Origin: an uncultured virus (IMG/VR IMGVR_UViG_3300020048_000030)
Lineage: Duplodnaviria > Heunggongvirae > Uroviricota > Caudoviricetes
Length of the DNA stretch: 64,000 nt
IMG/VR virus record: IMGVR_UViG_3300020048_000030
Strand: one strand, 5' to 3'
Shown: positions 1,552 to 64,000 of the stretch, in pieces
How positions within the stretch are numbered: the first letter of the stretch is position 1
How the letters are laid out: every line of letters starts with the position of its first letter
Notes under the pieces: model-generated
The model's database searches: none
What the model was told of the DNA's origin: nothing
What the model saw: only the letters and a program-made list of their open reading frames with translations
Made by a program: the position numbers and the translations under genes

Positions 1552-1852
1552 TTATTTTTCTTTTAATAGTACTTATCTTTTTACTTCTTATTTCTTCAAT
1601 TGGTTTCAAATATATTACAAATAATGATTTTTCTTTTATTGTATATATAAAGGATATGATCTCAGAATATTCCTCTTTTATTGATTTTCTTAAATTTTCA
1701 ACATGATAATTATCAACACCTTTTGATACTTGAACTTGAATACCTGTAAATTCTTCTTTTATATAATCAATACTACAATTTGAATATATTGTTATGGGAT
1801 ATACCATATAATTTTCAATAAAATCTATTAATTCTTTATGTTCTTTTAACAT
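1541..1852 (-). CDS. hypothetical protein with RxxKI tail
   Basis: ORF track; ends IRSKKISTIKRKI. Confidence 0.65.
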   Translation of the reverse strand: MLKEHKELIDFIENYMVYPITIYSNCSIDYIKEEFTGIQVQVSKGVDNYHVENLRKSIKEEYSEIISFIYTIKEKSLFVIYLKPIEEIRSKKISTIKRKINGI

Positions 1853-2481
1853 AGTTCTAAATATTTTTTTGGAACATATTCAGTTAACCATACTTGATTT
1901 TCAGATAGATAAAATTTAAATCCATCCTTAAACATTTTTTCAGCTTCCACTTTAAAAATAGTAGGATCAAGATGTTTTGAATGTCTTTTACCAACAATAT
2001 CTGCAGTTCTTTCATCTGCAGAAAGATGTACGTGTTGTCTTTTCATTTTACTAAGACCACCACTTTTCAAAATTTCCTTTACAAAAGAAGGTGATGTACC
2101 ATGATATAAATACTTAGGTGGTTGTACTTCCTTTAACTGAACATCTACATCAATACTATGACCTTGACTAGCTCTTATTTTAGTTAAATCATCACTGAAT
2201 ACAAATCTCTTCTTATCATTTTCTTTGACAACTTCTTTTAAATCATCAATAGACATATCTAATTTCTTCAATACATCTTTAACAAATACCCAACCATTTG
2301 CATCCATATACAAATCTTCTGGATTGTGTCTAAGTAAATAAGATAAAGTTTTACTCTTTCTCATCAAATTTAACTTACTCATTTTATCATACCTATCTTC
2401 CATTTTAAAATATTCCTCATATTTAGTTTCTAACATTGGCGGTATTCCATCTTTTAACATCTTTGGTGTAATCCTGTGCAC
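1846..2481 (-). CDS. kptA: RNA 2'-phosphotransferase (KptA/Tpt1 family)
   Basis: SKTLSYLLRH, KKRF, IRASQGHS, LYHGT, RQHVHLS, SENQVWLT motifs; true start may be the ATG at 2382. Confidence 0.93.
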   Translation of the reverse strand: MHRITPKMLKDGIPPMLETKYEEYFKMEDRYDKMSKLNLMRKSKTLSYLLRHNPEDLYMDANGWVFVKDVLKKLDMSIDDLKEVVKENDKKRFVFSDDLTKIRASQGHSIDVDVQLKEVQPPKYLYHGTSPSFVKEILKSGGLSKMKRQHVHLSADERTADIVGKRHSKHLDPTIFKVEAEKMFKDGFKFYLSENQVWLTEYVPKKYLELC

Positions 2482-4017: not shown

Positions 4018-5221
4018 ATGAAAACATATCCAATAAGAATAAATCCTACATTAGAACAAATGAAAATGTTAATAGAATTATCTTCTATTAGAAAGGATAT
4101 ATGGAATAAATTACTTGATATACAACAACAATCTTATGAAACAAATAAATCTATATTTAATAAGTTTGATTTAAATAATATGTTACCTGAATTAAAAGAA
4201 CAATATCCAAGTTGGAAAAAATTAAATTCAAAAGCAGTTCAAACTATTGCTACTGAATTATATGGTTCTTATAGATCATTTTTTAATTTAATTAAAAAGG
4301 ATAAAACAGCAAGACCGCCGAATAAAATTGAAGATGATAATAATTTTCATACTATAACTTGGAACCAATCTGGATGGATATTACAACCAAATAATATAAT
4401 TATTATTAATAAGATACCATTTAATTATAAATCAAAAGTTAGTCTTGAAGATTTAAAGATTAAAGAAATGAGAATTAAATTTGTAAGAAATAAATGGTTA
4501 GTTGATTATGTTGTAGAAGAAAATGTAGAATATAAAGATAAAATAGAGATAGAGACAAAAATATTAGCAATAGATTTAGGTTTAGATAAGTTAGGTGTAG
4601 GAATAGATAATAAAGGAAAGGCTATATTTATGCCAAATAAATCTAAAAAGATAAATCATTATNNNNNNNNNNAAGAAAAATAATAGAAAATTTAAAAAAT
4701 TAAAAAAGACACTAAATAAAATCTACTACAAAAAAAATGAACAAATAAAACATACTCTTCATACACAGAGTAGGATGTTATCGTGTATGAACTATAATAC
4801 AATTATAGTTGGTGATCTTAAAGTAAAAAAATTGATGGCAACAGAAGGTGTAAATGAAAAGAAAAAAGGAATAAGAAAATCATTTCATCAGTCAAATATC
4901 AATCAATTTTTACAATACTTATCATATAAATGTCAATCAAAAAACACAAATCTTGTTAAAATTGGTGAACAATATACAACACAATTAAATTGTTTAACTG
5001 GAAAAATGTTTGATAAAAAAGTAGAATTAAAGGATAGACAAGTAGAATTAAGTAAAGACATCATTATTGATCGTGATTTAAACTCAGCCATAAACATATT
5101 AAATCGTTGGTTTGAACATCACCTTGCTGGTATGAACCAGCCTTTGGATATTTCCAGAGTTCTTCAAATTTATAATTTGAAGGAAACCACTACACCTTTA
5201 AGTGTAGTTGGTAGTTCATAG
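4018..5221 (+). mobile_element. tnpB: solo IS200/IS605-family TnpB RNA-guided endonuclease (one gene spanning a scaffold gap)
   Basis: KTYPIRINPT N-terminus, RuvC-I ILAIDLG, IIVGDL, YTTQ, RuvC-III DRDLNSAINI; frame is open from the N-gap (4673) into ORF 4775; 3' hairpin and GTAGTTCA right end. Confidence 0.85.
5183..5218 (+). ncRNA. 3' end of putative TnpB omegaRNA / element right end
   Basis: ACTACAC-ctttaa-GTGTAGT hairpin followed by TGGTAGTTCA, overlapping the tnpB 3' end. Confidence 0.6.
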
Positions 5222-5222
5222 T

Positions 5223-5837
5223 TTATTTTTTAGTAATAAGTTGTTCAAATTTTATTTTAATTGGTAAATATTTTTCTTTGTAATATTTCCAATCAGATAC
5301 TTCATTATCATAATCTTCTTTTAACATATCCCAAATATCATTTGCAGAAGAAAAATCTGTAATCTTTCCATTCTCAATTATTTGATGGAAAAATTGTAGT
5401 ATTCTAATGGAATGAAAAATTCCTTTTGTTCCCCTATATAAATCACCATCAATAATTTTATCTTTTGCTTTATTAAATGAATTATAAGATTGTGTCATAC
5501 CTTTATAAATCAACATGTCAGGTTTTAATTGAAAAGTTTTATCCGGTAAAACTAATTTTTCTTGTAATTTAGTATCTGGTGGTGCATAAATACATTCTAA
5601 ATATTGCATTTGATATTCTTTTAATCCATCAAGAAACACACTTGGAATGTGAACATGAATATTATATTCTTTATGTCTTATTTCTTGTTTCTCCATCATA
5701 GATGAAGCAAGAACAATAAAATCATAATCAGAAAATTCATTTGCAGTTCCATAAACATGTGAACCAAACATATAGATATTCTTTACTTTTAAAGGATGTA
5801 TCTTTATTATTTCAATAATTTCTTTAGGTGTTATCAT
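5223..5837 (-). CDS. Pol-beta-superfamily nucleotidyltransferase
   Basis: YMFGSHVYGTANEFSDYDF (GS...DxD). Confidence 0.82.
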   Translation of the reverse strand: MITPKEIIEIIKIHPLKVKNIYMFGSHVYGTANEFSDYDFIVLASSMMEKQEIRHKEYNIHVHIPSVFLDGLKEYQMQYLECIYAPPDTKLQEKLVLPDKTFQLKPDMLIYKGMTQSYNSFNKAKDKIIDGDLYRGTKGIFHSIRILQFFHQIIENGKITDFSSANDIWDMLKEDYDNEVSDWKYYKEKYLPIKIKFEQLITKK

Positions 5838-6387: not shown

Positions 6388-6785
6388 AAATTTTTATTTA
6401 TCTTTTCTATCTTTTTTCTTCTAAGATAATCATTTTTTAATTTAATATATTCTTCATCTTCAAATAAATTATCACCCCAAGCACCTTCACCCATATAAAT
6501 TTTGTCTCTCTGTTTAAGTTTAACTACTTTTTTAAGAAAACTTTCAAGGTCAAAATTATTCATTGAAGTATAACACCAAATAGCAAAATCATCTTCTTTA
6601 ATATTCCATTCTTCATAATATTCATAGAATGGTTCTTTACCTTCTTGTTTTAATTTTTTATCTATTTCCATACCTATATTGATATGGTCATAAATCATTT
6701 CTTTTTGTTTATCAGTAATTTTATCTAGCTGAATTATAAAACTACTTGAACTACTATTACTTACAAAACCATTTCTTATTTTCAT
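6384..6785 (-). CDS. MKIRNGFVSNSSSSSF-leader family protein
   Basis: Start corrected to 6785 by identity with the start of 9211..9819; RRKKIEKI tail. Confidence 0.75.
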   Translation of the reverse strand: MKIRNGFVSNSSSSSFIIQLDKITDKQKEMIYDHINIGMEIDKKLKQEGKEPFYEYYEEWNIKEDDFAIWCYTSMNNFDLESFLKKVVKLKQRDKIYMGEGAWGDNLFEDEEYIKLKNDYLRRKKIEKINKNL

Positions 6786-6790
6786 TTCTT

Positions 6791-7147
6791 TTAATTGTTT
6801 TTTATTAATTGAGATTCTATACCATCTATTACACCCCATTCATCAACATCTGGTGATATATCCTTTTTAATTATATGTTCTTCCACCATCAATTTTACAA
6901 ATGATTGAACTTGTTGGTAATTCATAGAAAATTCATTTTCTAAAATTGACCAAAATTTTCTATAATGACAACCAAAATATCCATTTTCTAAATTATAATC
7001 AAATAATAAAACATTATTATGTTTATAATATTTTTTATTAGGATAAGAAGGATGATAGTATTCTACTAAATTAGTAAAAATATCATAACAATACCTTTCT
7101 TCCGGGTGCATCCTATGATATTTTATTTTTTTAATTTTGTCTAACAT
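6791..7147 (-). CDS. hypothetical protein
   Basis: ORF track; N-terminal KIKKIKYHRM. Confidence 0.65.
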   Translation of the reverse strand: MLDKIKKIKYHRMHPEERYCYDIFTNLVEYYHPSYPNKKYYKHNNVLLFDYNLENGYFGCHYRKFWSILENEFSMNYQQVQSFVKLMVEEHIIKKDISPDVDEWGVIDGIESQLIKNN

Positions 7148-22465: not shown

Positions 22466-24451
22466 ATGACACCTATAAATGAACATAATATTATAGAAAT
22501 TGGAATATTATCTAATAAATTAATTAACCAATCTAAAAAATTAAATAAAACATTTAAATCTTTTTTATTAGAAAAAAATAATACCATAGATACTGCAAAT
22601 GAAATTTTTATAATTATTCATTCAAAAGATGAATTAGAAAAACTCAAAAAAATAGTAGAAGAATTAAATTATTATTGGGCAGAAGTATTAGATGAATCAT
22701 ATATTATTGATAGATTACCCCTTTATATTTTTTTTAGATTAGATAATAAACATATTACTTGGTTGTCACAAGACCAATTAAACAATAAAAATATATTAGA
22801 CATAATAGATAATGATTCATCATTTAATGGAGTATATAAAAAAATATATAAATTTGATGATATTAATAATTTTAAAATTATTTTAAAAACAGGAAAAATA
22901 ATACCTGAAATACCAACTTATAAACCTAAGAAATTTAATAGAACTTATGAACATATACAAAATTATCCATATAGATTTAAAACAGAAGAAGAATTTATAA
23001 AAGAATATGGTAGAGATTGGAGACATATGTTAATAGGTAATACTTTTACTTATGAAATGAATTATTTACTAGGAAAACCATTTCCATATGAATATAATAG
23101 TATTGATTATGGTAGTGGTACTAGATTTTATTTTGATGATCCAAGCAGACCAAATGATTATGATGATAAACATTGGTATATAGTTAAAGATATGTTAACT
23201 AAAAACGAACCAACTAAACCAAATTATAAACCTAAAAAATTTAATAGGTCTTATGAATCTATTGATAATAATTCTGTTCCTTACATATCACCAATTTTAA
23301 GTGTTGAAAAACAAAATGAAATATTTAAAATTGGAACAGAAGTAATAGTTAGACCTGATGCATTTGATTATTTTTCTGATGTTGATCATAATGATATGAG
23401 TGAGTATTTAGGTAAAAAGGCAAAAATAATAGAAATATCCACATTAGAAAAAATGTATTCTATAAATTATCATGAGGTAATTGATAACACTGATAATATA
23501 AACAAAGATGACTTATTAATAACCTTAGAAGATATAACAGGACATGGTACATATTTTTGGTATTATAGATGTTTACATGTTCCAATAATTATACCAAATT
23601 ATAAATCTAAAAAATTTAATAGAAGTTTAAATGAATCAAAAGTTGAAAATTTATATAATTCTAATTATTTTAAAACACATGATGTTTTAGTTATAACATT
23701 TATGAAAAATCAATTTATAGAAGTAAGAAATATTTTTAATGAAGTATTTAATATTAATATAAGATTGGATTTATTAGAAGAATTAAATGAAAGACAAGTA
23801 GAAGAATTTTTTATAATAATTGAAAAGAAGAAATATTCAAGTGCTTTTAATTGGGGGTGGGCTGTTATTGATTATTTAAAAACATTTATTGAAAATAATG
23901 ATGAAAAAATAATTAAAATTGTTAATTTTAATGATATTAGTAATAAATATAATTTAGAATATTTATTAAATAGTGGTGGTATTCCACCTAATTATAAACC
24001 AAAGAAATTTAACAAAAGTTTAAATGAATCAGTTGAAGAAATAAAAAATTATAACTTTTTTCAAAAATATCATTGGTTAGTAATAATTTTTGACCAAGAT
24101 ATTCCAAAAGATGAATTTGAAAGTATTAGAATACTATTAAATAATACATTTAGTAATGAGAATAATTATCTAAGAACATTATTAAATAGTGATTTGTATT
24201 ATGCCATTCATGATCAGTGTCATGAAGATAAATTTTTTATTGCTATTGAATATGTTCAACAAGAAAAAAGATTTGAAATGGGATTTTGTTATCTATCATA
24301 TTTAAATAAACATATATCACAAAAAAACTTACCATATAAAACTTTTAATAGTGATGATGTTAATAACAAAGAAAAGATAGAATCCATATTAAAATATGGT
24401 GATATTAAACCAAGTTATAAACCAAGAAAAATAAATAGATTTAACCTGTAA
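22466..24451 (+). CDS. modular polyprotein-like protein with five PxYKPKKFNR linkers
   Basis: Linkers at about 22913, 23219, 23594, 23987 and 24410. Confidence 0.75.
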   Translation: MTPINEHNIIEIGILSNKLINQSKKLNKTFKSFLLEKNNTIDTANEIFIIIHSKDELEKLKKIVEELNYYWAEVLDESYIIDRLPLYIFFRLDNKHITWLSQDQLNNKNILDIIDNDSSFNGVYKKIYKFDDINNFKIILKTGKIIPEIPTYKPKKFNRTYEHIQNYPYRFKTEEEFIKEYGRDWRHMLIGNTFTYEMNYLLGKPFPYEYNSIDYGSGTRFYFDDPSRPNDYDDKHWYIVKDMLTKNEPTKPNYKPKKFNRSYESIDNNSVPYISPILSVEKQNEIFKIGTEVIVRPDAFDYFSDVDHNDMSEYLGKKAKIIEISTLEKMYSINYHEVIDNTDNINKDDLLITLEDITGHGTYFWYYRCLHVPIIIPNYKSKKFNRSLNESKVENLYNSNYFKTHDVLVITFMKNQFIEVRNIFNEVFNINIRLDLLEELNERQVEEFFIIIEKKKYSSAFNWGWAVIDYLKTFIENNDEKIIKIVNFNDISNKYNLEYLLNSGGIPPNYKPKKFNKSLNESVEEIKNYNFFQKYHWLVIIFDQDIPKDEFESIRILLNNTFSNENNYLRTLLNSDLYYAIHDQCHEDKFFIAIEYVQQEKRFEMGFCYLSYLNKHISQKNLPYKTFNSDDVNNKEKIESILKYGDIKPSYKPRKINRFNL

Positions 24452-25379
24452 TATCTTTCATTTCTCTTTTAGTATCTCTCTCGCGTATGTAATTTATTAC
24501 TCTATATACTAAACCATGACTAAAATTTGTTTTTTTAATTATATCTTTTACTGATTCATTATTATTTAATAAATTTTCTATGATTAGATATCTATCTTCT
24601 TTATAGAGTGTATTAATATTTACCCTATCCCATTTTCTTTTCATTATTGGAAGATTTAATAATAAACATTTATTCTTAATAGATTTTATCATTTTAGGAC
24701 TAGTAATAAAAAACATAGAACAATTATCAGATGTTTTATTAAAAATTTTAATATTATTTGTTAAAATATAATAGAAATATTCTAATATTTCTTTCCAAGA
24801 TAAATCACATTTTACTGTCATCAACTTACCATTTTTTGATATACTACCATCACCATCAATAAATCCAATAATAAGACTAAATAATTGGTCATGTGATAAT
24901 TTTGGTATAGTGGGTGGGTTTTTAGTTTTATTTGTTTTCCAATCAAATAATAACGATAATTTAGTAATTGTTTCTTTATCACTTATTGTATATCTAATAA
25001 CATTAGGATTATCATTATAAAATGGTCTTAATTTAATATTAATATGATTTTGAATATTTTCAAAAAAGTATCTATCTTTTATATTAATATTTACTTGTAT
25101 ATTTTTAATTTCTGATATATGTCCATCTGCTAATAAAAACCCTATCCAATAACATGTTATATTATCATTTAAATCTAATAGTTTTATTAAAGTTTTATTG
25201 GTTTTACTATCATTAAAATCTCTTTTTAACCCAAATAGACAAGCCATTTTACTAATATAATTATATGACAAATTTAATTCATCCATCATATCTTTCTTTG
25301 GTTTTGATGGATAATTTTCAATCAAATAATTTTTTATAAAAATACTTCTTTCTGTGTTTAGGTTTTTATTTAATATCAT
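24441..25379 (-). CDS. LAGLIDADG homing endonuclease (two motifs)
   Basis: YWIGFLLADGHI and LIIGFIDGDGSI; C-terminal HTH-like segment. Confidence 0.88.
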   Translation of the reverse strand: MILNKNLNTERSIFIKNYLIENYPSKPKKDMMDELNLSYNYISKMACLFGLKRDFNDSKTNKTLIKLLDLNDNITCYWIGFLLADGHISEIKNIQVNINIKDRYFFENIQNHINIKLRPFYNDNPNVIRYTISDKETITKLSLLFDWKTNKTKNPPTIPKLSHDQLFSLIIGFIDGDGSISKNGKLMTVKCDLSWKEILEYFYYILTNNIKIFNKTSDNCSMFFITSPKMIKSIKNKCLLLNLPIMKRKWDRVNINTLYKEDRYLIIENLLNNNESVKDIIKKTNFSHGLVYRVINYIRERDTKREMKDITG

Positions 25380-25399: not shown

Positions 25400-25864
25400 T
25401 TATATATTAATATTAAAATCTCGTTTTATTTTTAATTTTTCATCTCGTTCATATAGTAGATTTCTTTTATCGACATTTTTCCTTCCTTTAGCTAAACCAA
25501 TTTCTATCTTATAAATTCCATTTTCATTAGGGTATAATTTAATTGGAACTATGGTTAAACCCTTTTCATCAAGTTTTATTTTAAGTTTGTTTAATTGCTT
25601 CCTATGAAGTAATAACTTCCTATCTCTTTTAGGGTCATGATTAAGATAACTACCTTCATCATAAATAGCAATATCAATTCCTCTTATAAATAATTCATTA
25701 TCTTGAAATATACAAAAACTACCATTAATATTAACTTTACTATTTCTTATTGATTTTATTTCAGTTCCGGTTAATACAACACCTGCTTCTATTTTATCAA
25801 AAATTTCATAATCAAAAAACACTCTTTTATTTTTGAATGTCCCGCCTTCTAATTTCTTTTTCAT
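25400..25864 (-). CDS. smpB: SsrA-binding protein SmpB
   Basis: NKRVFFDY, EAGVVLTGTEIKSIR, NHDPKRDRKLLLH, GLTIVP, IGLAKG...DKR. Confidence 0.95.
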   Translation of the reverse strand: MKKKLEGGTFKNKRVFFDYEIFDKIEAGVVLTGTEIKSIRNSKVNINGSFCIFQDNELFIRGIDIAIYDEGSYLNHDPKRDRKLLLHRKQLNKLKIKLDEKGLTIVPIKLYPNENGIYKIEIGLAKGRKNVDKRNLLYERDEKLKIKRDFNINI

Positions 25865-38024: not shown

Positions 38025-38912
38025 ATGCCAAAAAGAAAAACAACAGAACAATTTATTAATGATGCCAAAAAAATACACAATAATGAATATGATTATTCAT
38101 TAGTAAATTATAAAAATAATAAAATTCAAATAGAAATAATATGTTCTATACATGGTATATTTCTACAAAGACCAAGTGATCACTTATCAGGATGTAAATG
38201 TCCTTATTGTTATGGAACACCAAAGAAAACAAACGACCAAATTAAAAAAGATTTTTTAAAAATACATAATAATCAATATGATTATTCATTAGTAGATTAT
38301 AATGGTGTTTTCACTAAAATAAAAATAAAATGTACCAAATGTAATAATATATTTGAACAAACACCACACGATCATCTTAAAGGTCAAGGTTGTCCAAAAT
38401 GTATAGGTAAAAATAGAAGTATTGATGAATTAAAAAATATATTAAATAATATACATAATAATAAATATAACTATGAATTATTAGATAATACAAATACTAA
38501 AATAAAATATAAAATAGTATGTCCTATTCATGGTGAATTTTTACAATACCTATATCACCATATAAATGGTGAAGGTTGTCCAAAATGTAATGAATCAAAA
38601 GGTGAAAAAGAAATAAGAAATATATTAGAAAAAAATAATATAAAATATGAGTCACAAAAAACATTTCCTAACTGTAAACATAAACAATTGTTGAAATTTG
38701 ATTTTTATTTACCTAACCATAACATAATAATTGAATATGATGGTGAACAACATTTTAAACCAAATAATTTTTTTGGTGGTGATGAATCATTTAAAAATAC
38801 CCAAATAAGGGATAATATTAAAAATGAATACTGTAAACAAAAAAATATAAATTTGTTAAGAATAAAATATGATGAAAAAATAATTGATAAACTATCCCAA
38901 TTCTTTTTCTAA
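38025..38912 (+). CDS. zinc-repeat (3) + PD-(D/E)xK putative homing endonuclease
   Basis: Same architecture as 31250; ESKGEKEI, FDFYLP, IEYDGEQH. Confidence 0.85.
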   Translation: MPKRKTTEQFINDAKKIHNNEYDYSLVNYKNNKIQIEIICSIHGIFLQRPSDHLSGCKCPYCYGTPKKTNDQIKKDFLKIHNNQYDYSLVDYNGVFTKIKIKCTKCNNIFEQTPHDHLKGQGCPKCIGKNRSIDELKNILNNIHNNKYNYELLDNTNTKIKYKIVCPIHGEFLQYLYHHINGEGCPKCNESKGEKEIRNILEKNNIKYESQKTFPNCKHKQLLKFDFYLPNHNIIIEYDGEQHFKPNNFFGGDESFKNTQIRDNIKNEYCKQKNINLLRIKYDEKIIDKLSQFFF

Positions 38913-40409
38913 TTTTTCTAATTCATTCTGTAATTCTTTTAATTCTTCATTGGCCTTCATCATAACCTTTTTATACTTCTTACGTTCTTCATATATTTCT
39001 GCCATAACATTCTTTACAACACCGTCTTCATTTTTAAAAACAGCACCATTTAAAGTTATTATATCGTCCTTTTCTAACTTAATCTTATGACTATTAAAAG
39101 AAGAGTATGTATCTTCACCAGACCTCACTTTTTTTATCATATCATAAACATCCTTACCCTTTTCTTTAATTAATAAACCTTTATAACTATCAGAACTTAT
39201 ATTAAATTGACGCATAGTAGTAGGATATAGTGATGCAAAATCAAAACAACAAGTCCAAGTATTCATACCAACAACTGGATCTTTTACCCAACCACCTTTT
39301 ACGTTCATTTCAGTAGACACACTATCACTTGATTCCTTCTTAGTATCATCCTTGACAAAAACTACGTTTTTTTCATCCCTCATTTTACTTCTTAAAATAC
39401 CTTCTGTTACTGGTAGTGTATTAAATGCATCTAATACTTTTATTTTTGATAATACTGATATACCATATAATATATCCACGTATCTCATTTTTTCATGTAT
39501 TTGTTGAACCAATGCAGAGTCAATAGCATTATACATAATAAATTTTTGATAATCATTAGTATACAAATATTTTAAATTACCTTCATAATTTACTTTTTTA
39601 ACACCTATAACTCTCTCAGATACAAAATCTAAACTTGAAGATTCTTTTACTTTTACAGAGGTATCCCATTTTTCATAGAGTCCCATATAATCCACAATTA
39701 CCCTATGTGCAGGCATTTCTGATTGGTCATTTTGTAACCAAGATTCTCTAAGTACACCAGTGAAAGAAGCAACAGTTGGATCACCCCCAATATTTCTAAA
39801 TCTATTAACTAAAAATACCCAGTCATAAGCCACAAAATTCCATCCAGTTATTACTGACATTTTAGGAATCATCAACTTAAAAAAGTTTAATAACATATCA
39901 TATTCACTTTCATAATATTTGTACATAAACTGATAATCAGTATGTAATTTTTCAAAGTGATTATTTATTCCATCTTGAATTGATTCTGTTTGTGATTTAG
40001 TAAGTTTTTTTGTACCCATTACAAGTACTTTATTTTTATTAACAACAGATATACTTTGAATTGCAGATTCAGCAGACTTCGGATCCACTTTTTTATCAAT
40101 AATTTCATTTTCAATGTCACAAAAAAAGATATTAGGTTCTTTATAGTCAAAGATTTCTTTTTTATCTTCTTCTGGTAATTTGTCTAAAAAATCATAAATA
40201 GAATATCTATTAGGGTGTGAACTGAATATTTCCTTTACACATCTTCCATCCCATGTAACAAAACGTCCATGTCTATCTGGATCACTATCTTCACACATAA
40301 TAAATTTTGTAGGATTATTCCAAGGGTAATATTTTAACTTTATGTTTCCATAATCATCTATATAACTGATTATCAATTTTTTATTTCTATATTCTGTATC
40401 TATCAACAT
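38892..40409 (-). CDS. family-B DNA polymerase, N-terminal part (3'-5' exonuclease + motif A); split gene
   Basis: ExoI FCDIE, ExoII TGWNFVAYD, ExoIII YNAID, motif A DFASLYP; stops after ERKKYK, before motifs B/C. Confidence 0.9.
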   Translation of the reverse strand: MLIDTEYRNKKLIISYIDDYGNIKLKYYPWNNPTKFIMCEDSDPDRHGRFVTWDGRCVKEIFSSHPNRYSIYDFLDKLPEEDKKEIFDYKEPNIFFCDIENEIIDKKVDPKSAESAIQSISVVNKNKVLVMGTKKLTKSQTESIQDGINNHFEKLHTDYQFMYKYYESEYDMLLNFFKLMIPKMSVITGWNFVAYDWVFLVNRFRNIGGDPTVASFTGVLRESWLQNDQSEMPAHRVIVDYMGLYEKWDTSVKVKESSSLDFVSERVIGVKKVNYEGNLKYLYTNDYQKFIMYNAIDSALVQQIHEKMRYVDILYGISVLSKIKVLDAFNTLPVTEGILRSKMRDEKNVVFVKDDTKKESSDSVSTEMNVKGGWVKDPVVGMNTWTCCFDFASLYPTTMRQFNISSDSYKGLLIKEKGKDVYDMIKKVRSGEDTYSSFNSHKIKLEKDDIITLNGAVFKNEDGVVKNVMAEIYEERKKYKKVMMKANEELKELQNELEKLEKELG

Positions 40410-40757: not shown

Positions 40758-40922
40758 ATGAAAAGAAAAACAACAAAAACAAATATCACAGTATCCATTA
40801 ATATTGAATTAAATAATATCTTAACTGATTTATTTAATAATAAATCTGAATATATTGAATGGTTGGTATATCAAGATATATTAGAAAAAAAAGTTGATGG
40901 TTATGAAAAAATAATTATATAA
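40758..40922 (+). CDS. ribbon-helix-helix protein (54 aa; not in ORF track)
   Basis: TNITVSINIEL...NKSEYIEWLV; stop 1 nt before the endonuclease ATG. Confidence 0.72.
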   Translation: MKRKTTKTNITVSINIELNNILTDLFNNKSEYIEWLVYQDILEKKVDGYEKIII

Positions 40923-40923
40923 T

Positions 40924-41811
40924 ATGAAAACAACAAAACAATTTATTAAAGAGGCGATTAAATTAAATAGAGATAGATATGATTATTCATTAGTAAATTA
41001 TATAAATAGTAAGACTAAAATTAAAATAATTTGTAAAGAACATGGTGAGTTTGAACAAAGACCAGACCATCATTTAAATAATCATGGTTGTTCAAAATGT
41101 AGTAAAAATAAAAAATTAACATTAATAGAATTTATAACACACTCTAATACAATACATAATAATAAATATGATTATTCTATGGTGAATTATATAAATGCTC
41201 ATACAATTATTGATATAAGGTGTCCTATTCATGGAATATTTAAACAATATCCTTATAATCATACATTAAATTCTAATGGGTGTCCAGATTGTGCAATAGA
41301 AAAAAGTAGATTAACTAAATCTATATTTATAGAAAAATCAAATTACATACATAATAATAAATATGATTATTCATTAGTAGAATATTTGGATAATAAATCA
41401 AAAATTAAAATATTATGTCCTATTCATGGAGAATTTATTCAATCCCCATTAAAACACTTAGATAATCATGGTTGTTCAAAATGTAATGATAGTAAAGGTG
41501 AAAAAGAAATAATAAAAATAATGGATAATAAAAAAATATTATTTGAAACTCAAAAAAAATTTAAAGGGTGTGAATATAAATCACTATTAAAATTTGATTT
41601 TTATTTACCTGATTATAATATATGTATTGAATTTGATGGTAAACAACATTATCAAATAACTAATTATTGGGGTGGTGAAAAGGAATTCAATGATATAAAA
41701 TTAAGAGACAAAATTAAAACTGATTATTGTATAAACAATGGGATTAAATTAATAAGGATTAAATTTAATGAAAATATAGAAGAAAAATTAAACTTTATAT
41801 TAAATATATAA
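40924..41811 (+). CDS. zinc-repeat (3) + PD-(D/E)xK putative homing endonuclease
   Basis: Same architecture as 31250. Confidence 0.85.
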   Translation: MKTTKQFIKEAIKLNRDRYDYSLVNYINSKTKIKIICKEHGEFEQRPDHHLNNHGCSKCSKNKKLTLIEFITHSNTIHNNKYDYSMVNYINAHTIIDIRCPIHGIFKQYPYNHTLNSNGCPDCAIEKSRLTKSIFIEKSNYIHNNKYDYSLVEYLDNKSKIKILCPIHGEFIQSPLKHLDNHGCSKCNDSKGEKEIIKIMDNKKILFETQKKFKGCEYKSLLKFDFYLPDYNICIEFDGKQHYQITNYWGGEKEFNDIKLRDKIKTDYCINNGIKLIRIKFNENIEEKLNFILNI

Positions 41812-41823
41812 TATATTAATTAT

Positions 41824-41897
41824 GCAAGAAAGGTGTAATGGTGCACAGTTTACTTCCAGTAAGATGGGGACAGTTCGAATCTGTTATCTTTGCTCAA
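41824..41897 (+). tRNA. non-canonical tRNA-Gly(TCC)-like element
   Basis: GCAAGAA-AG-GTGT AATGGT GCAC-A-GTTTA CTTCCAG TAAGA-TGGG-GACAG TTCGAAT CTGTT-ATCTTTGC-T-CAA; imperfect acceptor and anticodon stems. Confidence 0.65.
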
Positions 41898-41908
41898 ATA
41901 TTACTTAT

Positions 41909-41982
41909 GCAAGTATGGTGTAACGGCGCACAGATCACAAACCAGTGATAAGGATATAGTTCGAGTCTATAGCTTTGCTCAA
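41909..41982 (+). tRNA. second tRNA-Gly-like element with aberrant anticodon loop
   Basis: GCAAGTA-TG-GTGT AACGGC GCAC-AG-ATCAC AAACCA GTGAT-AAGGA-TATAG TTCGAGT CTATA-GCTTTGC-T-CAA. Confidence 0.55.
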
Positions 41983-42858
41983 ATGAAAAATTATAGTGAA
42001 TCTTTTTTTAATAAGTCTAAAATTCTATATAATAACAAATACGATTATTCTTTATTTAAATATATAAATAACAAAACAAAAGGCATTATAATATGTCCTA
42101 TTCATGGTGAATTCTTACAAACACCAAATGATCATTTAGGAAATCACAGTTGTATAAAATGTAATAAAAATATCCCTAGTACAGAAGAATTTATACAAAA
42201 ATGTAATAAAATACATAATAATTTTTTTGATTATACTTTAACTGATTATATAAATAACCACACAAATATTAAAATAATATGTCCTATTCATGGTGAATTC
42301 TTACAAACACCAATGTCACATTTAAGAGGTGGTGGTTGTAAATTATGTAATGATGATAAATTAAGAAAAACAAAAGAAGAATTTATAAAAGATGCAAATA
42401 TAATTCATAATTATGAATATGGTTATTTATTTGTTGATTATAAAAATTCCAACACAAAAGTAATAATAGAATGTTATAAACATGGTATTTTTAAACAAAC
42501 ACCACTTAGTCATTTATCAGGTAGTGGTTGTCCAAAATGTAGTGAAAGTAAAGGTGAAAAAGAAATAAGAAGAATTTTAGACGAAAATAATATTAAGTAT
42601 GAAAATCAAAAAACATTTAATAATTGTAGGTATAAAGGATTATTAAAATTTGATTTTTATATAAAAGATTTAAATTTATGTATTGAATATGATGGTGAAC
42701 AACATTTTGAAATAAAAGAGCACTGGGGTGGTATAAAAGAATTTGAAAAAACACAGTTAAGGGATAAAATAAAAACTGATTATTGTATTACAAATAATAT
42801 ACAATTAATTAGAATTAGATATAATGATAATATTTTAGAAAAATTAGATTTTGTTTAA
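41983..42858 (+). CDS. zinc-repeat (3) + PD-(D/E)xK putative homing endonuclease
   Basis: Same architecture; start corrected to the ATG at 41983. Confidence 0.85.
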   Translation: MKNYSESFFNKSKILYNNKYDYSLFKYINNKTKGIIICPIHGEFLQTPNDHLGNHSCIKCNKNIPSTEEFIQKCNKIHNNFFDYTLTDYINNHTNIKIICPIHGEFLQTPMSHLRGGGCKLCNDDKLRKTKEEFIKDANIIHNYEYGYLFVDYKNSNTKVIIECYKHGIFKQTPLSHLSGSGCPKCSESKGEKEIRRILDENNIKYENQKTFNNCRYKGLLKFDFYIKDLNLCIEYDGEQHFEIKEHWGGIKEFEKTQLRDKIKTDYCITNNIQLIRIRYNDNILEKLDFV

Positions 42859-42859
42859 T

Positions 42860-42928
42860 AAAAAAACCACTTAAAGTAGCGAATTTTAAGTGGTTAGTAG
42901 CCGAAACTACAACGGTCCTAAACCGTAT
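42860..42928 (-). ncRNA. three-hairpin structured element ending in a terminator
   Basis: Minus strand: ACGG-tttagga-CCGT, GTAG-tttcgg-CTAC, AACCACTTAAA-attcgctac-TTTAAGTGGTT followed by a T tract. Confidence 0.55.
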
Positions 42929-42941
42929 GTTTTTAGATTAT

Positions 42942-57740: not shown

Positions 57741-59228
57741 TTAATTATATTTCATTTTTAATTTTCCACTATCATATATTTTATATATTTTTCTATCTAA
57801 TAGCAACTGTTCATTTGGTTTATTATCAAAATTATTTTTTATAAAATTAATATTGTTTTTTCGTTTGTGATTTAAAATGTAATAATAATCTGGTTCTATT
57901 AAAGAATCTATTTTAAATCCCAAATCTTCATATGATTTTCCTTTTGAATAACTTCTATCTATATAAGTAATCACTTCATTTGGACTATATTTTCTTATAA
58001 AAAAATTAAATATTTTTGATATACCACCAATAATATTAGTATTTAATTTATTACAAAATCTCAATATTTCATATCTATTTTTAAAATGTTTAAATACCAT
58101 TAAACTAATTAATTCTCCATTGTGAAATAACCCTATATTTATTTTTGAACCAATATATCCTTTTAAATGATTTTTATTAAGAAATTCCTTCACTAATTCT
58201 TTATCAATTATTTCCTTTAATTCAGTTTCTTTTATATTTATTTCATTATTAATTTTTAATTTATTTAAAATCATAGATTTAATTATATTTTGTTTATATA
58301 ACCAATCATCTTCATAAATATGTATCATTTGAATCCCTATTTCATTACATAAATCAGTTTTTAATTTATGATAATTCTTATCTTTTTTTAATTCATTATG
58401 CCAATGTAATCCATTAAAATCAATACCAATTTTAAATTCTGGTAAATAAATATCTAATTCATAAGGTGATATAATTTTACGTGAATTTAAAATTATATCA
58501 CCTTTATAATATATTTTAATAAAATCATATATTTGTGTTTCATATGATGATTTATTTGAATGTAGTGAATTACACACTGTACATATAACATTTTTAAATT
58601 CTAATCTATTATGTAATAAATTTAAATCAATTGAAAAATTATGATCTTTATTTAAATCACATTTTATATTTAAAATTTTTTTATCATAATCTCCATCTAT
58701 AATATTTAAAAAACTATAGTTTTTAGATATCCTTTTAATCCAAGTGGTTTTTAGAGTTTTTACTTTTTTATCTTTTACATTTTGTATTTTAGAAACATTA
58801 TCAGTATTATATTTATCTACTAATTTTGTTTTCATTTTATCTTTTATATCTTTTGATTGTAATGCATGACTAACCCCATATCTATCATTTAATGTTTTTC
58901 TTATTTTTAATTTTATATCTTCTCTTAAAAAAGATGTAGACACACCATAGTTCATATTATTTGTTATTTTAGTTTTAATGTGTTTACATTCATCACAATA
59001 ATATTTATCTTTTAATCCATTAGTTATTTTATAATAATTTTTATAAACAACATCTTTTTCATTACCACACTCATCACACTTCACATCAATATGATAATGT
59101 GAACTGGGTGTTAAATCATCAACACTTATTAAATATTTATTTTCATCATTTGTTTTATACCCTTTTAATTCATATATTTTTTTATTTCTATTAGTTTTAT
59201 TAACTAATATAGTTTTTTGAATAATCAT
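57741..59228 (-). CDS. putative homing endonuclease (zinc ribbons, Vsr-like domain, GNAT-like C-terminal domain)
   Basis: CDECG, YELDIYLP..IGIDFNGLHWH, IHIYEDDW, FLNKNHLKG, YEILRFC, IYDSG. Confidence 0.7.
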   Translation of the reverse strand: MIIQKTILVNKTNRNKKIYELKGYKTNDENKYLISVDDLTPSSHYHIDVKCDECGNEKDVVYKNYYKITNGLKDKYYCDECKHIKTKITNNMNYGVSTSFLREDIKLKIRKTLNDRYGVSHALQSKDIKDKMKTKLVDKYNTDNVSKIQNVKDKKVKTLKTTWIKRISKNYSFLNIIDGDYDKKILNIKCDLNKDHNFSIDLNLLHNRLEFKNVICTVCNSLHSNKSSYETQIYDFIKIYYKGDIILNSRKIISPYELDIYLPEFKIGIDFNGLHWHNELKKDKNYHKLKTDLCNEIGIQMIHIYEDDWLYKQNIIKSMILNKLKINNEINIKETELKEIIDKELVKEFLNKNHLKGYIGSKINIGLFHNGELISLMVFKHFKNRYEILRFCNKLNTNIIGGISKIFNFFIRKYSPNEVITYIDRSYSKGKSYEDLGFKIDSLIEPDYYYILNHKRKNNINFIKNNFDNKPNEQLLLDRKIYKIYDSGKLKMKYN

Positions 59229-61778: not shown

Positions 61779-62002
61779 TTATGGGTTTTTTTAGTCAATA
61801 TATTTAATTTTTTACTCCTTACAAATTCTTGATATTCATCTATTGTAATATCAACACTTTTATTCCCAGAATAATCATCTAATTCTTTACTTACACCTGA
61901 TATTATTATTTCGTCATATATTTTATAATGTGTAAGAACATCAAAGTTATAATCACATAAATAATTTATACATTCAAGTAATATATCTTTATTTATTTCC
62001 AT
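61775..62002 (-). CDS. hypothetical protein with RxxKL tail
   Basis: Ends VRSKKLNIL. Confidence 0.6.
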   Translation of the reverse strand: MEINKDILLECINYLCDYNFDVLTHYKIYDEIIISGVSKELDDYSGNKSVDITIDEYQEFVRSKKLNILTKKTHN

Positions 62003-64000
62003 TTTCTATAAATAAATTTGTAAATATGGCTTCAAGTACATTAACTACAATTGAATTACCAGCTTGTTTCACTAATGTACTTTCATCAAATACTTTTAAA
62101 ACATTATCAACATCTTGATCAGTAAAACCCATTAATTTATAACATTCTCTACCATTTAAAAATCTTATTTTACCATCATCCATATAAATCTTACCGGCAA
62201 TTCCGGTTGTTAATGTTGGACTTACCCCATCTATACTATAAATTCTACCAAGTGTTTCAAATTTATATTTTCCTATTAAATCAAATTTCTTTATATTATT
62301 TCTTGATGTACGAAATACTACTGGTTCGGGTAAAAATCCAATAAAATCTAACCATCTTTCATCATTTAAATCAAGGATATCTCTTAATGTTTTAGTTGTG
62401 AAATTTACTTCTTTAGGTACATTATAATGACCCAATAAGGTTGAAACCATATAAACCCTATCTCTTGATTGAGGTACATCAAAATAGGTTGATTTTAATT
62501 TAAAATCATAATTAGTATAACCTAAATCAGTTAACATTTTTTTCCAATCATCAAATCCATCTTTATTTTGTTCAGAATAAATACCTGGAACATTCTCCAT
62601 AAGTAAATAATTTGGTAATTTATCCAATCCTTTAAGTTCAGTTAAAATTCTTCCTACTTGCCAAAGTAAAGAACTTCTTTCACCTGCATATAAACCCTTC
62701 TTTTTTCCTTGTATCGAGAGATCTTGACAATTATGTGCAATACAACCATTTGCAGTAAATGTATGATCAGTTTCAACTTCTATATCATAAACAGTTTCAT
62801 TTCTATGTGTATTTAATACTTTAGTTACTGGAAACCAAACATAACCATTTTCATAAAATGACTTTCTATTTGATGCAGTTGAAAAATTATAAACTAATGT
62901 ATAATTTGTTTTTTGATTAATACTTCTACCTTCAATAATATGTTTTTTTCTTTTTGGTTCATCTTTATATATTGAATATGGTAATTTATATACTTTAGAT
63001 ACACATTGAGCAACACCATAAATTAATTCCCTACTAACACTAGAAATTCTATGTTTAGTTAATTTTGTTGAACCATCTGCTGAATGATATCCAATTATAA
63101 ATTGTTCTAATAAATCTATTGGTAAATCTATTATTGTATTTGTTAATTTTTTACCATATGCATATTTACCAAACTGTGTTACAAATAATTCTATTTCTTT
63201 TTTTGGAATATGTATTTTATAAATTGTTTTTTCTTTAACTATATTATATGAAAAATTAATATTTTTTAATTTTTCAGTTATTTCATTCAATTCATTTTCA
63301 TCATTACCTTCACAACAAATAATAATTCCACCATTTGATCTAACCCAACCATCACCAATATATCTACCTATAACCCACCAAAAATCTTTATTATCCATTA
63401 ATATAGATAATTCATTTTTATGTCGATCTTTTCTTCCATCAGACCATTCAAAATCAATACCATCCCATTTAGGTATTATACTATTATTATTTATTGCAAC
63501 ACCTAAATAATCATTTTTAGTCAATTCATTACATTCTTTCCATTGTGGTTCAGTAAATGACCTTCTTTTGTGACTTTTAATAATTTTAGTTCTTGTTAAA
63601 AATTTATGATTTTCTGTTGTTTCTATTTTATCAATACCACTACCTACAATTTCCCATATTTCTTTTATTCCTTGATTATATGTATTTAAAACTTTTTTAT
63701 AAGTATTAGTATGTGTTAATACAACATCATCAACTTTTATATCATTTATTTTCTTATAACCAACATCAGTTAATACTAATGTATTTTCAGTAAAACAAGG
63801 AAAAGAATATGTTAATAGGTTATGTGATGGTATATTTTCACCTTTTAAATCAATTACACTACCAAGATTTTTAGTATTAATATGAGCATCATATAATAAT
63901 CTTAATTTTTTTAAAGATAATTTATTTAATTCACATTTTGTTTTAGTATTATTACTAAATGTAAAATCTTTTAATTTTTCAATAATTTCTTCTTTTGTTA
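61989..64000 (-). CDS. dcm: DNA (cytosine-5)-methyltransferase containing an intein; 5'-truncated by the window edge
   Basis: Frame is open to the window end; YSFP|intein|CQDLS (motif IV), MENV (VI), PQSRDRVY (VIII), RECYKLMGF (IX), QAGNSI (X). Confidence 0.92.
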   Translation of the reverse strand, partial: TKEEIIEKLKDFTFSNNTKTKCELNKLSLKKLRLLYDAHINTKNLGSVIDLKGENIPSHNLLTYSFPCFTENTLVLTDVGYKKINDIKVDDVVLTHTNTYKKVLNTYNQGIKEIWEIVGSGIDKIETTENHKFLTRTKIIKSHKRRSFTEPQWKECNELTKNDYLGVAINNNSIIPKWDGIDFEWSDGRKDRHKNELSILMDNKDFWWVIGRYIGDGWVRSNGGIIICCEGNDENELNEITEKLKNINFSYNIVKEKTIYKIHIPKKEIELFVTQFGKYAYGKKLTNTIIDLPIDLLEQFIIGYHSADGSTKLTKHRISSVSRELIYGVAQCVSKVYKLPYSIYKDEPKRKKHIIEGRSINQKTNYTLVYNFSTASNRKSFYENGYVWFPVTKVLNTHRNETVYDIEVETDHTFTANGCIAHNCQDLSIQGKKKGLYAGERSSLLWQVGRILTELKGLDKLPNYLLMENVPGIYSEQNKDGFDDWKKMLTDLGYTNYDFKLKSTYFDVPQSRDRVYMVSTLLGHYNVPKEVNFTTKTLRDILDLNDERWLDFIGFLPEPVVFRTSRNNIKKFDLIGKYKFETLGRIYSIDGVSPTLTTGIAGKIYMDDGKIRFLNGRECYKLMGFTDQDVDNVLKVFDESTLVKQAGNSIVVNVLEAIFTNLFIENGNK
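62730..63797 (-). mobile_element. intein (356 aa) with LAGLIDADG endonuclease
   Basis: Begins CFTENTLVLT, ends VYDIEVETDHTFTANGCIAHN before +1 Cys; GRYIGDG and GYHSADG motifs. Confidence 0.93.

Follow-up and report, generated by a model that had tools for sequence, protein, structure and literature searches.

The 64,000-nucleotide (nt) stretch of the uncultured-virus record IMGVR_UViG_3300020048_000030, called the window here and the reference for all coordinates, has a G+C content of 23% and carries two transfer RNA (tRNA)-like elements, E1 and E2, between two free-standing homing-endonuclease genes (HEGs). The elements are part of a plus-strand block, divergent from a polymerase gene, that consists of an open reading frame (ORF) of 54 amino acids, the first endonuclease gene (HEG1), E1, E2, the second endonuclease gene (HEG2), and two terminator-like hairpins. 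E1 and E2 are members of a family of tRNA-Gly-like genes with a bulged acceptor stem, and are products of neither chance nor decay. In what follows L-numbers denote IMG/VR loci and G-numbers relative contigs, and counts given out of 19 refer to distinct related sequences in phage and metagenome contigs.

The block opens with the small ORF (40758..40922, +), whose stop overlaps the start of HEG1 (TAATATG). It has no match in Pfam or PHROG, relatives are found by phmmer at the matching position in L064 (4e-09) and L083 (3e-06), and on our own reading of the sequence its product is putatively ribbon-helix-helix-like. HEG1 (40924..41811, +; 295 amino acids) has treble-clef zinc-ribbon repeats and a C-terminal nuclease-like domain, with matches to DUF723 and DUF4379 in Pfam, to PHROG 559 (8e-75), and to PHROG 9084, annotated as homing endonuclease; no match was found in the PDB. 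A 12-nt leader (41812..41823, +) ending in TTAT separates the HEG1 stop from E1 (41824..41897, +), a tRNA-Gly(UCC)-like gene of 74 nt identified from its sequence, the covariance model R3 described below, Rfam, and ARAGORN at a relaxed setting. An 11-nt spacer, ATATTACTTAT (41898..41908, +), leads to E2 (41909..41982, +), a paralogue of E1 that is also 74 nt long and was identified from its sequence, R3, and the identity matrix. HEG2 (41983..42858, +; 291 amino acids) is of the same type as HEG1, with zinc-ribbon repeats (DUF723, DUF4379) and matches to PHROG 559 and PHROG 9084; the two are 54% identical, and their alignment starts near the ATG at 41983. Two hairpins (42866..42935), with a terminator-like site at 42912-42926 on both strands, close the block, and nearly the same hairpins lie downstream of a single HEG in L064 and in the 735-kb uncultured phage LR756501. 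A scan for sigma-70 promoters was uninformative in DNA of 23% G+C, with 34 sites found and 32.6 in shuffled sequence. Three public runs, belonging to two studies and one of them possibly the source sample, have contigs that span the E1-E2 junction with no difference; therefore the tandem is not an assembly artefact. Contigs of four DNA runs were checked in this way; other joints were traced to HEG paralogues of other organisms and ignored. No RNA run was found to contain the stretch.

A preliminary description, made from the DNA letters, had reported two 74-nt cloverleafs 11 nt apart with TTAT directly upstream of each, and all of the details that it listed are present. Both elements have the 5' end GCAAG and the 3' end CTTTGC-T-CAA and share a D stem of GTGT/GCAC, and their T stems differ and pair in each case (GACAG/CTGTT in E1, TATAG/CTATA in E2). 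The anticodon loop of E1, seven nt long with U33 and a purine at 37, is CTTCCAG (CUUCCAG), which contains the reported TCC. The loop of E2 lacks U33 and can be read, as reported, as AAACCA on a 5-bp stem or equivalently as the 8-nt loop CAAACCAG; on their 5' sides the two loops differ as UU and AAA. The endonuclease ATG placed directly after the second CAA is that of HEG2, at 41983. The repetition of ends and leader is real and is longer than had been noted, since the unit includes an 11-nt leader, ATATTA(A/C)TTAT, and an AT after the CAA, giving a period of 85 nt; the last 11 nt of the leader before E1 recur, with one change, as the spacer. The upstream frame that had been said to read through the element is incidental, being merely the HEG2 frame, which is open as far as TTG at 41890. 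The acceptor stem had been called imperfect; it is better read as a stem with one conserved bulge in its 3' strand, with pairs 4-7 covarying in relatives. In E1 the stem is GCAAGAA / A-UC-(U)-UUGC, with one bulged U, an A7.A66 mismatch, and six pairs formed, and in E2 it has five pairs plus U6.G, leaves A7 without a partner, and has a 3' strand one base shorter than that of E1. The T loop of E1 is UUCGAAU, and its U73 is followed by CAA. Both D loops keep GG (AAUGGU in E1, AACGGC in E2), and the tertiary core of U8, A14, G18, G19, T54-C56, and A58 is complete in E2, while E1 has A8 for U8.

Relatives were obtained from pattern scans of IMG/VR and a metagenome collection and from a covariance-model search of 70 polymerase loci from relatives, and 19 distinct ones were found. 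R3, a covariance model built from these relatives only and without the window sequences, gives E1 62.5 bits (E 1.7e-15) and E2 52.9 bits (E 1e-12), and the next-best site in the window 16 bits. The acceptor stem of the family reads G1-C72, C2-G71, A3-U70, an extra base in the 3' strand, and then pairs 4-7, which covary: GCAAGAC/GUC(U)UUGC, GCAAGCG/CGC(U)UUGC, GCAGUGG/CCAC(U)UGC, and GCAAUGG/CCAU(U)UGC are all found. L222 is a canonical cousin without the bulge (GCAAGAU/AUCUUGC). The extra base, U8, U73, and CAA are present in 19 of 19 relatives, although the constancy of CAA is partly one of ascertainment, as most relatives were found by patterns requiring TTGCTCAA. The loop contains UCCA in 18 of the 19 and is CUUCCAG in 14. 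E1 and E2 both have the signature of the family (5' GCA, an extra 3'-strand base after pair 3, and a 3' end of (U)UGC-U-C), and every family-invariant column is intact in both despite their 25% divergence (the A8 of E1 is taken up below).

The alignment A6 comprises 22 distinct rows. Pairing holds in 97.3% of its cells, and double-sided changes are seen at 18 of 21 pairs, counts that are biased towards the structure of the model because the alignment had been fitted to it. The covariation score of A6 is 0.812, compared with 0.243 for shuffles (reached by none of 500) and 0.10-0.15 with slid partners. Within the window itself, two pairs of the anticodon stem and two of the T stem distinguish E1 from E2, and all four differences are compensated. 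This demonstrates strong selection for the cloverleaf and bears out the earlier argument from covariation to structural selection, as well as the view of the elements as tRNA-Gly-like and non-canonical. Random decay without covariation, which had been named as the pattern that would contradict that argument, is not what the homologues present. Identity is 75% between E1 and E2, 80% between E1 and the element of L065 (77-80% across L066 and L065), and 73% between E2 and the element of L069. From the 75% within the pair and the 80% between E1 and L065, the separation of E1 from E2 dates back about as far as that of these phages from one another. Since four of the 19 relatives have loops of 8-9 nt, the 8-nt loop of E2 is a habit of the family and not a private defect.

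The ends of the elements are consistent with glycine identity, with one departure. In bacteria the determinants of tRNA-Gly are listed as U73, G1-C72, C2-G71, G3-C70, C35, and C36 (Table 1, PMC9976931). U73, G1-C72, and C2-G71 are kept in E1, E2, and all 19 relatives, with one G3.U variant at pair 3. G3-C70 is replaced by A3-U70 in E1 and E2, and A-U is also found at this pair in the canonical tRNA-Gly(GCC) of LR756501. At the positions of C35 and C36, E1 has U-C-C and E2, in the same 3' register, CC and then A-G, with the loop numbering of E2 uncertain. The trinucleotide CAA had been described as standing in place of CCA. In the tandem trio of canonical tRNA-Gly genes of LR756501 (GCC, UCC, CCC), however, TCAA follows two and TCAT the third, and downstream of the canonical tRNA-Gly genes of contig G007 stands TCAA or TCG. 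Therefore CAA is not a replaced CCA; the full CCA is simply not encoded.

Compared more broadly with canonical phage tRNA-Gly(UCC) (LR756501, G007), the family has the same G1-C72, C2-G71, U73, UCC, short D loop, and C-starting tail without CCA. The canonical genes, however, have an unbroken 7-bp acceptor stem, A38, and a 5-bp T stem, form part of tRNA clusters, and are recognized by ARAGORN under default settings, whereas the family has the bulge, G38, often a 4-bp T stem, and often no GG at 18/19, scores 19.5-39 bits with Rfam, and lies beside HEGs. A separate observation concerns tRNA arrays of other phage contigs in IMG/VR, which contain a conserved element of composite build, about 150 nt long and called by neither ARAGORN nor Rfam (L001-L007, L009, L011-L014, L016, L019-L021, at about position 1500 of each). 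It begins with a 7-bp hairpin (loop AGTAATTAA), a T-arm-like hairpin, and an acceptor 5' strand and D arm identical to those of E1 (GGTGTAATGGTGCACAG), and ends with a conserved 25-70-nt insert replacing the anticodon arm, a T arm, an acceptor 3' strand, and CAA. Related huge-phage contigs also carry a tRNA with a CUA anticodon ('Pyl' according to ARAGORN, possibly an amber suppressor) and a canonical tRNA-Gly with the rare anticodon ACC (G005:C1:248960-249031, G006:C1:4949-5020, and G007:C1:22215-22288, called by ARAGORN); in the window, TAG terminates 6 of 66 ORFs.

The physical link of the family to free-standing HEGs is tight. A HEG of the PHROG 559/3339 type lies within 400 nt of the element in 14 of the 19 relatives, two others are too near a contig end, and three have none. 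The usual order is HEG stop, 12-25 nt (12-36 nt in most HEG-linked relatives), and element, on the same strand. The gap of 12 nt between HEG1 and E1 fits this layout, and that between E2 and HEG2 is 0 nt. L065, L066, and L069 have a HEG of the same type followed by an element, as in HEG1-E1, and the layout holds for two HEG architectures, a zinc-ribbon type A and a DUF7487 type B. In the other direction the link is loose: an element is nearby for only 3 of 21 polB-proximal HEGs and at only 7 of 79 loci of HEGs with the C-terminal (Mom-domain) part of type B. The tRNA-like genes found in those 79 loci are exclusively of this family, at seven loci by the model, four of which are also called by ARAGORN. 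With most HEGs lacking an element and most elements having a HEG, it follows that the element attracts HEGs and that HEGs do not depend on the element.

Comparison among phages points to a mobile unit. The closest relative, L064 (88% identical in polB), has the small ORF, one HEG, and the hairpins, but no element, and LR756501 is arranged likewise. The order in L066 is HEG, element, HEG, with the second HEG starting about 40 nt past the element. L037 has an element without the HEG that L025 carries at the same site. L092 has identical copies of the element at 4850-4921 and 6763-6834 around a 1.9-kb insert of two ORFs (350 and 285 amino acids) without a family match, and the syntenic site in L078 holds a single copy. 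The sequence comparison shows the block at this locus to be an accessory insertion. The preliminary description had suggested building a covariance model and searching phage genomes for gene context. Its observation is confirmed and its interpretation partly supported, and it missed the tie of the family to HEGs.

The behavior of element and HEG matches that of SegB and the tRNA genes of T-even phages, in which SegB adjoins and cuts within tRNA genes and drives duplication and amplification of neighboring tRNA genes (PMC13096335). In both systems a free-standing HEG adjoins tRNA genes and is inherited or duplicated together with them, and the motif reported for SegB, RAWTSGAAC (PMC13096335), is complementary to the T-loop sequence that E1 and E2 also contain (GTTCGAATC, GTTCGAGTC). 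There are also differences. SegB is a GIY-YIG enzyme, while HEG1 and HEG2 have no GIY-YIG match in Pfam; unlike SegB, the HEGs here combine a PD-(D/E)XK-like domain with either zinc-ribbon repeats (DUF723/DUF4379) or DUF7487. SegB has no isotype preference, while the partner here is always the one non-canonical Gly-type family. SegB cuts and amplifies tRNA genes; the copies here, at 75% identity, are old and not a fresh amplification.

The block lies in a window unusually rich in selfish elements, with seven HEG-like ORFs in addition to intein and LAGLIDADG ORFs. Six of the seven are of the HEG1/HEG2 type and one (57741-59228) is of the second, DUF7487 type. The neighboring family-B DNA polymerase (polB) fragment (38892-40409, -) is 55% identical to the polymerase of LR756501 and 75-88% identical to polymerases on IMG/VR contigs; these relatives were found by an alignment-based search of IMG/VR, a single-sequence search having returned none. 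The polB ORF stops after about 505 amino acids; it takes in the exonuclease domain, but of the polymerase profile just the first third, and the rest of the polymerase was not found. A third HEG paralogue (38025-38912, +) converges on the end of this ORF; relatives have the same polymerase ORF of about 500 amino acids with HEGs on both sides. Elsewhere in the window, a C5 cytosine methyltransferase ORF has matches to intein-splicing and LAGLIDADG domains, and there is a separate LAGLIDADG ORF (61989-63524, -, and 24441-25379, -, respectively). Two adjacent ORFs (4018-4683, +, and 4775-5221, +) match the N-terminal helix-turn-helix and the C-terminal TNB of IS605 OrfB/TnpB-like proteins, and look like a broken or split TnpB. 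ORFs at 1846-2481 (-), 5223-5837 (-), and 25400-25864 (-) match Tpt1/KptA RNA 2'-phosphotransferase, a nucleotidyltransferase-fold protein, and SmpB, and by their matches could form a toolkit for RNA repair and trans-translation; no tmRNA or canonical tRNA was detected in the 64-kb window.

The explanation favored here, with moderate confidence, is that the family consists of glycine-accepting, non-canonical tRNA-like genes that serve as landing sites for HEGs and are carried along by them, E2 being an old paralogue with an 8-nt loop. E1 and E2 would be co-transcribed with the small ORF, HEG1, and HEG2 in a unit ending at the hairpins at 42866-42935. RNase P and 3' processing would excise them from the transcript, the CCA end, of which only C74 is encoded, would be completed, and glycyl-tRNA synthetase (GlyRS) would charge them with glycine. 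Glycylation is expected because G1-C72, C2-G71, U73, C35, and C36 are kept, with A-U at 3:70. The HEGs would use the conserved element as a landing or cleavage site and as a homology site, and would drag it along by gene conversion; cleavage by these particular HEGs is a proposal. Such homing and gene conversion would explain the varied genome positions of the family and the presence of two copies between two HEGs. If the elements decode, E1 would read GGA and GGG, which make up 32% of the glycine codons in the window (GGT 67%, GGA 26%, GGG 6%, GGC 1%), and E2, whose enlarged loop contains ACC, would read GGU, the most frequent at 67%.

Several observations weigh against this explanation, most of them as arguments against ordinary decoding. 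ARAGORN at default settings finds no tRNAs in the 64-kb window, and only at a relaxed 80% threshold returns tRNA-Gly(tcc) for E1 and 'tRNA-???(ac)' for E2. The Rfam tRNA model (RF00005) gives E1 19.5 bits against a gathering score of 29 in a 176-nt search and does not report E2 there, and a 601-nt search gave no match, none being at gathering level. The elements thus do not score as ordinary tRNAs, in agreement with the preliminary description, and the relatives, at 33.7-39 bits, lie just above the threshold. The bulge is conserved across the family, C32 and G38, which could pair, are present together in 17 of 19 relatives, the first T-stem pair is standard in only 9, and GG is missing from the D loop in 12. 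The loops of 8-9 nt, found in E2 as well as the four relatives, have their extra bases 5' of UCCA. Private to the window are A8 in E1, where all 19 relatives have U8, a G27.A43 mismatch in both elements, and the acceptor 3' strand of E2 with one base fewer. Contig G007, which carries a family member, also has canonical tRNA-Gly genes (UCC twice, ACC, GCC twice) in a tRNA cluster; therefore the phage concerned has sources of tRNA-Gly other than the family. Other points concern the evidence for the family. The folding energy of the single sequence is no better than that of shuffles (z = +0.30 and +0.09 for stretches shifted by one base), one relative that was found through a neighboring protein ends in CTA, which limits the constancy of CAA, and the qualifications on ascertainment and on the fitting of A6 given above belong here as well. 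A blastn search of a 179-nt stretch against 50,697 phage records gave short matches only, with E of at least 0.6. As a whole, the bulge, the short T stems, the loss of GG18/19, C32-G38, and the variable loops lend some weight to a role other than decoding.

Two special forms of function were considered and rejected. A quadruplet-decoding or frameshift-suppressor role for E2 does not fit a loop without U33, and nothing in the window requires frameshifting. A tmRNA-like partner for the SmpB of the window would be expected to have the alanine determinant G3.U70 (listed in Table 1 of PMC9976931), and 3:70 is A-U; no tag-coding part was seen.

An unlikely alternative is that the RNAs are charged by GlyRS and kept from EF-Tu and the ribosome by the bulge, short T stem, and altered D loop, so that their glycine passes to another enzyme. 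The candidate recipient is a GNAT domain of the Mom family, which is part of the type-B HEG-like proteins found beside many members; Mom is known to transfer glycine from Gly-tRNA-Gly to adenine in DNA (PMC13219725). The C-terminal domains of type B match Mom in Pfam in four of six members (E up to 1, best 4.8e-9), that of L035 with 30.0 bits against a cut-off of 27.1. In the ESM Atlas, Mom is found in 16-33% of the members of the nearest clusters, GNAT clusters are resembled as well, and a structure match to a 197-amino acid cluster (Mom in 26%) has a TM score of 0.90 by query and 0.87 by row. An AlphaFold model of the domain, made from a six-sequence alignment, reached a pLDDT of only 48.8. 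In the window the domain forms the C-terminal 215 or so residues of the DUF7487 (Hef-like) endonuclease-like protein of 495 amino acids at 57741-59228 (-), which matches the domain profile A7 by hhalign (100%, E 1.4e-51). At least 5 of the 19 relatives adjoin a type-B protein with a Mom domain, and the restriction of tRNA-like genes at the 79 Mom-domain loci to this one family fits the same explanation. The family also tolerates loops of 8-9 nt and yet keeps CC-A, and its frequent loss of GG18/19 resembles that in the non-proteinogenic tRNA-Gly of Staphylococcus aureus, which binds EF-Tu weakly (PMC4574755).

Several observations speak against a glycine carrier. Their flanking HEGs are short type-A forms without a Mom domain, and both elements keep GG in the D loop. 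The domain at 57741-59228 matches Mom with only 15.8 bits, below threshold, an hhalign comparison of the domain profile with Mu Mom is not significant (probability 0.28%, E 0.21), a PDB profile search gives weak GNAT matches only (E 0.07), and the R3 scan of the window found no E-like element beside that ORF. No tRNA-like gene is near 72 of the 79 Mom-domain loci, in three cultured phages no tRNA is annotated alongside the Hef-like HEGs, and the adjacency that does exist is equally well explained by homing. The staphylococcal non-proteinogenic tRNA-Gly, a donor for Fem enzymes, is alike in UCC, in the loss of G18/G19 (12 of 19 relatives here), and in coexisting with canonical isoacceptors, and is charged by normal GlyRS (PMC4574755). 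It differs in that E1 and E2 keep GG and that the available part of that account notes no acceptor bulge; no Fem-like gene was found among the 67 ORFs of the window that were scanned. In phage Mu, a Mom-family GNAT needs glycyl-tRNA-Gly, and here Mom-family domains are fused to HEG-like proteins beside several members. Mu, however, uses the tRNA-Gly of its host and is not known to have a tRNA gene of its own, and the Mom-like domain of the window is 16 kb from E1 and E2 and below threshold. The bolder proposal that the bulged RNAs are private glycine carriers, charged by the host GlyRS but excluded from translation and feeding Mom-family domains fused to HEG-like nucleases, with nuclease, modifier, and tRNA forming one mobile cassette, is very doubtful. 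If it were true, the cassette would mark the adenines of its own genome as self-protection and cut unmarked rivals, and E1 and E2 would serve the protein at 57741-59228.

It is quite unlikely that the elements are instead cis-acting RNA parts of the cassette, providing RNase P/Z cut points, 3'-end stabilizers, or terminators for the message of the upstream HEG. Most HEG-linked relatives have the element on the strand of the HEG and shortly past the HEG stop, which would suit such a part. In L065 and L069 a convergent gene comes directly after the element, a place at which a 3' end would be expected. The HEG2 ATG abuts the CAA of E2 with no spacer, and under this explanation E2 would gate HEG2, whose translation would have to await cleavage and start from a message with a leader of 3 nt. 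In L066, however, the following HEG begins about 40 nt after the element and is not flush with it. Elements occur without a HEG in L037, L183, L220, and L217, and in opposite orientation to the HEG in L035, L078, and L179, and most HEGs of the same type have no element. A processing signal would not need a conserved UCC loop, U73, or glycine determinants, and a cis-acting role could coexist with tRNA function.

An anti-defense tRNA, either an isoacceptor with acceptor stem and anticodon loop reshaped to evade tRNA-targeting toxins of the host or a decoy for them, amplified and spread by the HEGs, is similarly improbable. The bulge after pair 3 shifts pairs 4 and 5 without moving the GlyRS determinants 1:72, 2:71, and U73. 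Changes in the anticodon loop let phage tRNAs escape nucleases of the host (PMC10264068), an anti-defense tRNA gene is amplified by SegB (PMC13096335), and the Tpt1/KptA and nucleotidyltransferase of the window could belong to RNA repair. However, no tRNA-Gly-targeting defense of the host is known. An 8-nt loop would disturb reading-frame maintenance, and a decoy is expected to mimic the host tRNA and not to depart from it.

That E1 and E2 are decaying tRNA-Gly pseudogenes left by endonuclease-driven recombination, with no present function, is highly improbable: both fall below the ARAGORN and Rfam thresholds, carry the irregularities listed above (A8 in E1, G27.A43 in both, the loss of U33 and of one acceptor base in E2), and are missing from the closest relative, but their stem differences are compensated at all four pairs with no uncompensated decay, the invariant positions are intact at 25% divergence, the bulge, G38, and enlarged loops are covarying traits of the family rather than private damage, and the sequence is identical in contigs from two studies.

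No description of this bulged tRNA-Gly-like family was found in the literature on phage tRNAs and glycine tRNA acceptor stems, in a coverage that left subscription journals mostly outside. The family is previously unremarked, and its kind, that of phage tRNA genes and HEG-tRNA modules, is already known. Persistence of a single bulge through many compensatory changes usually points to a specific protein partner, and the bulge here sits in the part of tRNA-Gly recognized by GlyRS, EF-Tu, RNase P, and toxins that read the acceptor stem. With its bulge, short T stem, and loops of 7-9 nt, the family offers natural variants for tests of charging without translation or of escape from defense. It extends the partnership of HEGs and tRNA genes to other nuclease families and to huge phages, and limits it to one type of tRNA. 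As E1 and E2 are missed and their relatives barely called by standard annotation, phage genes of this kind are probably under-counted.

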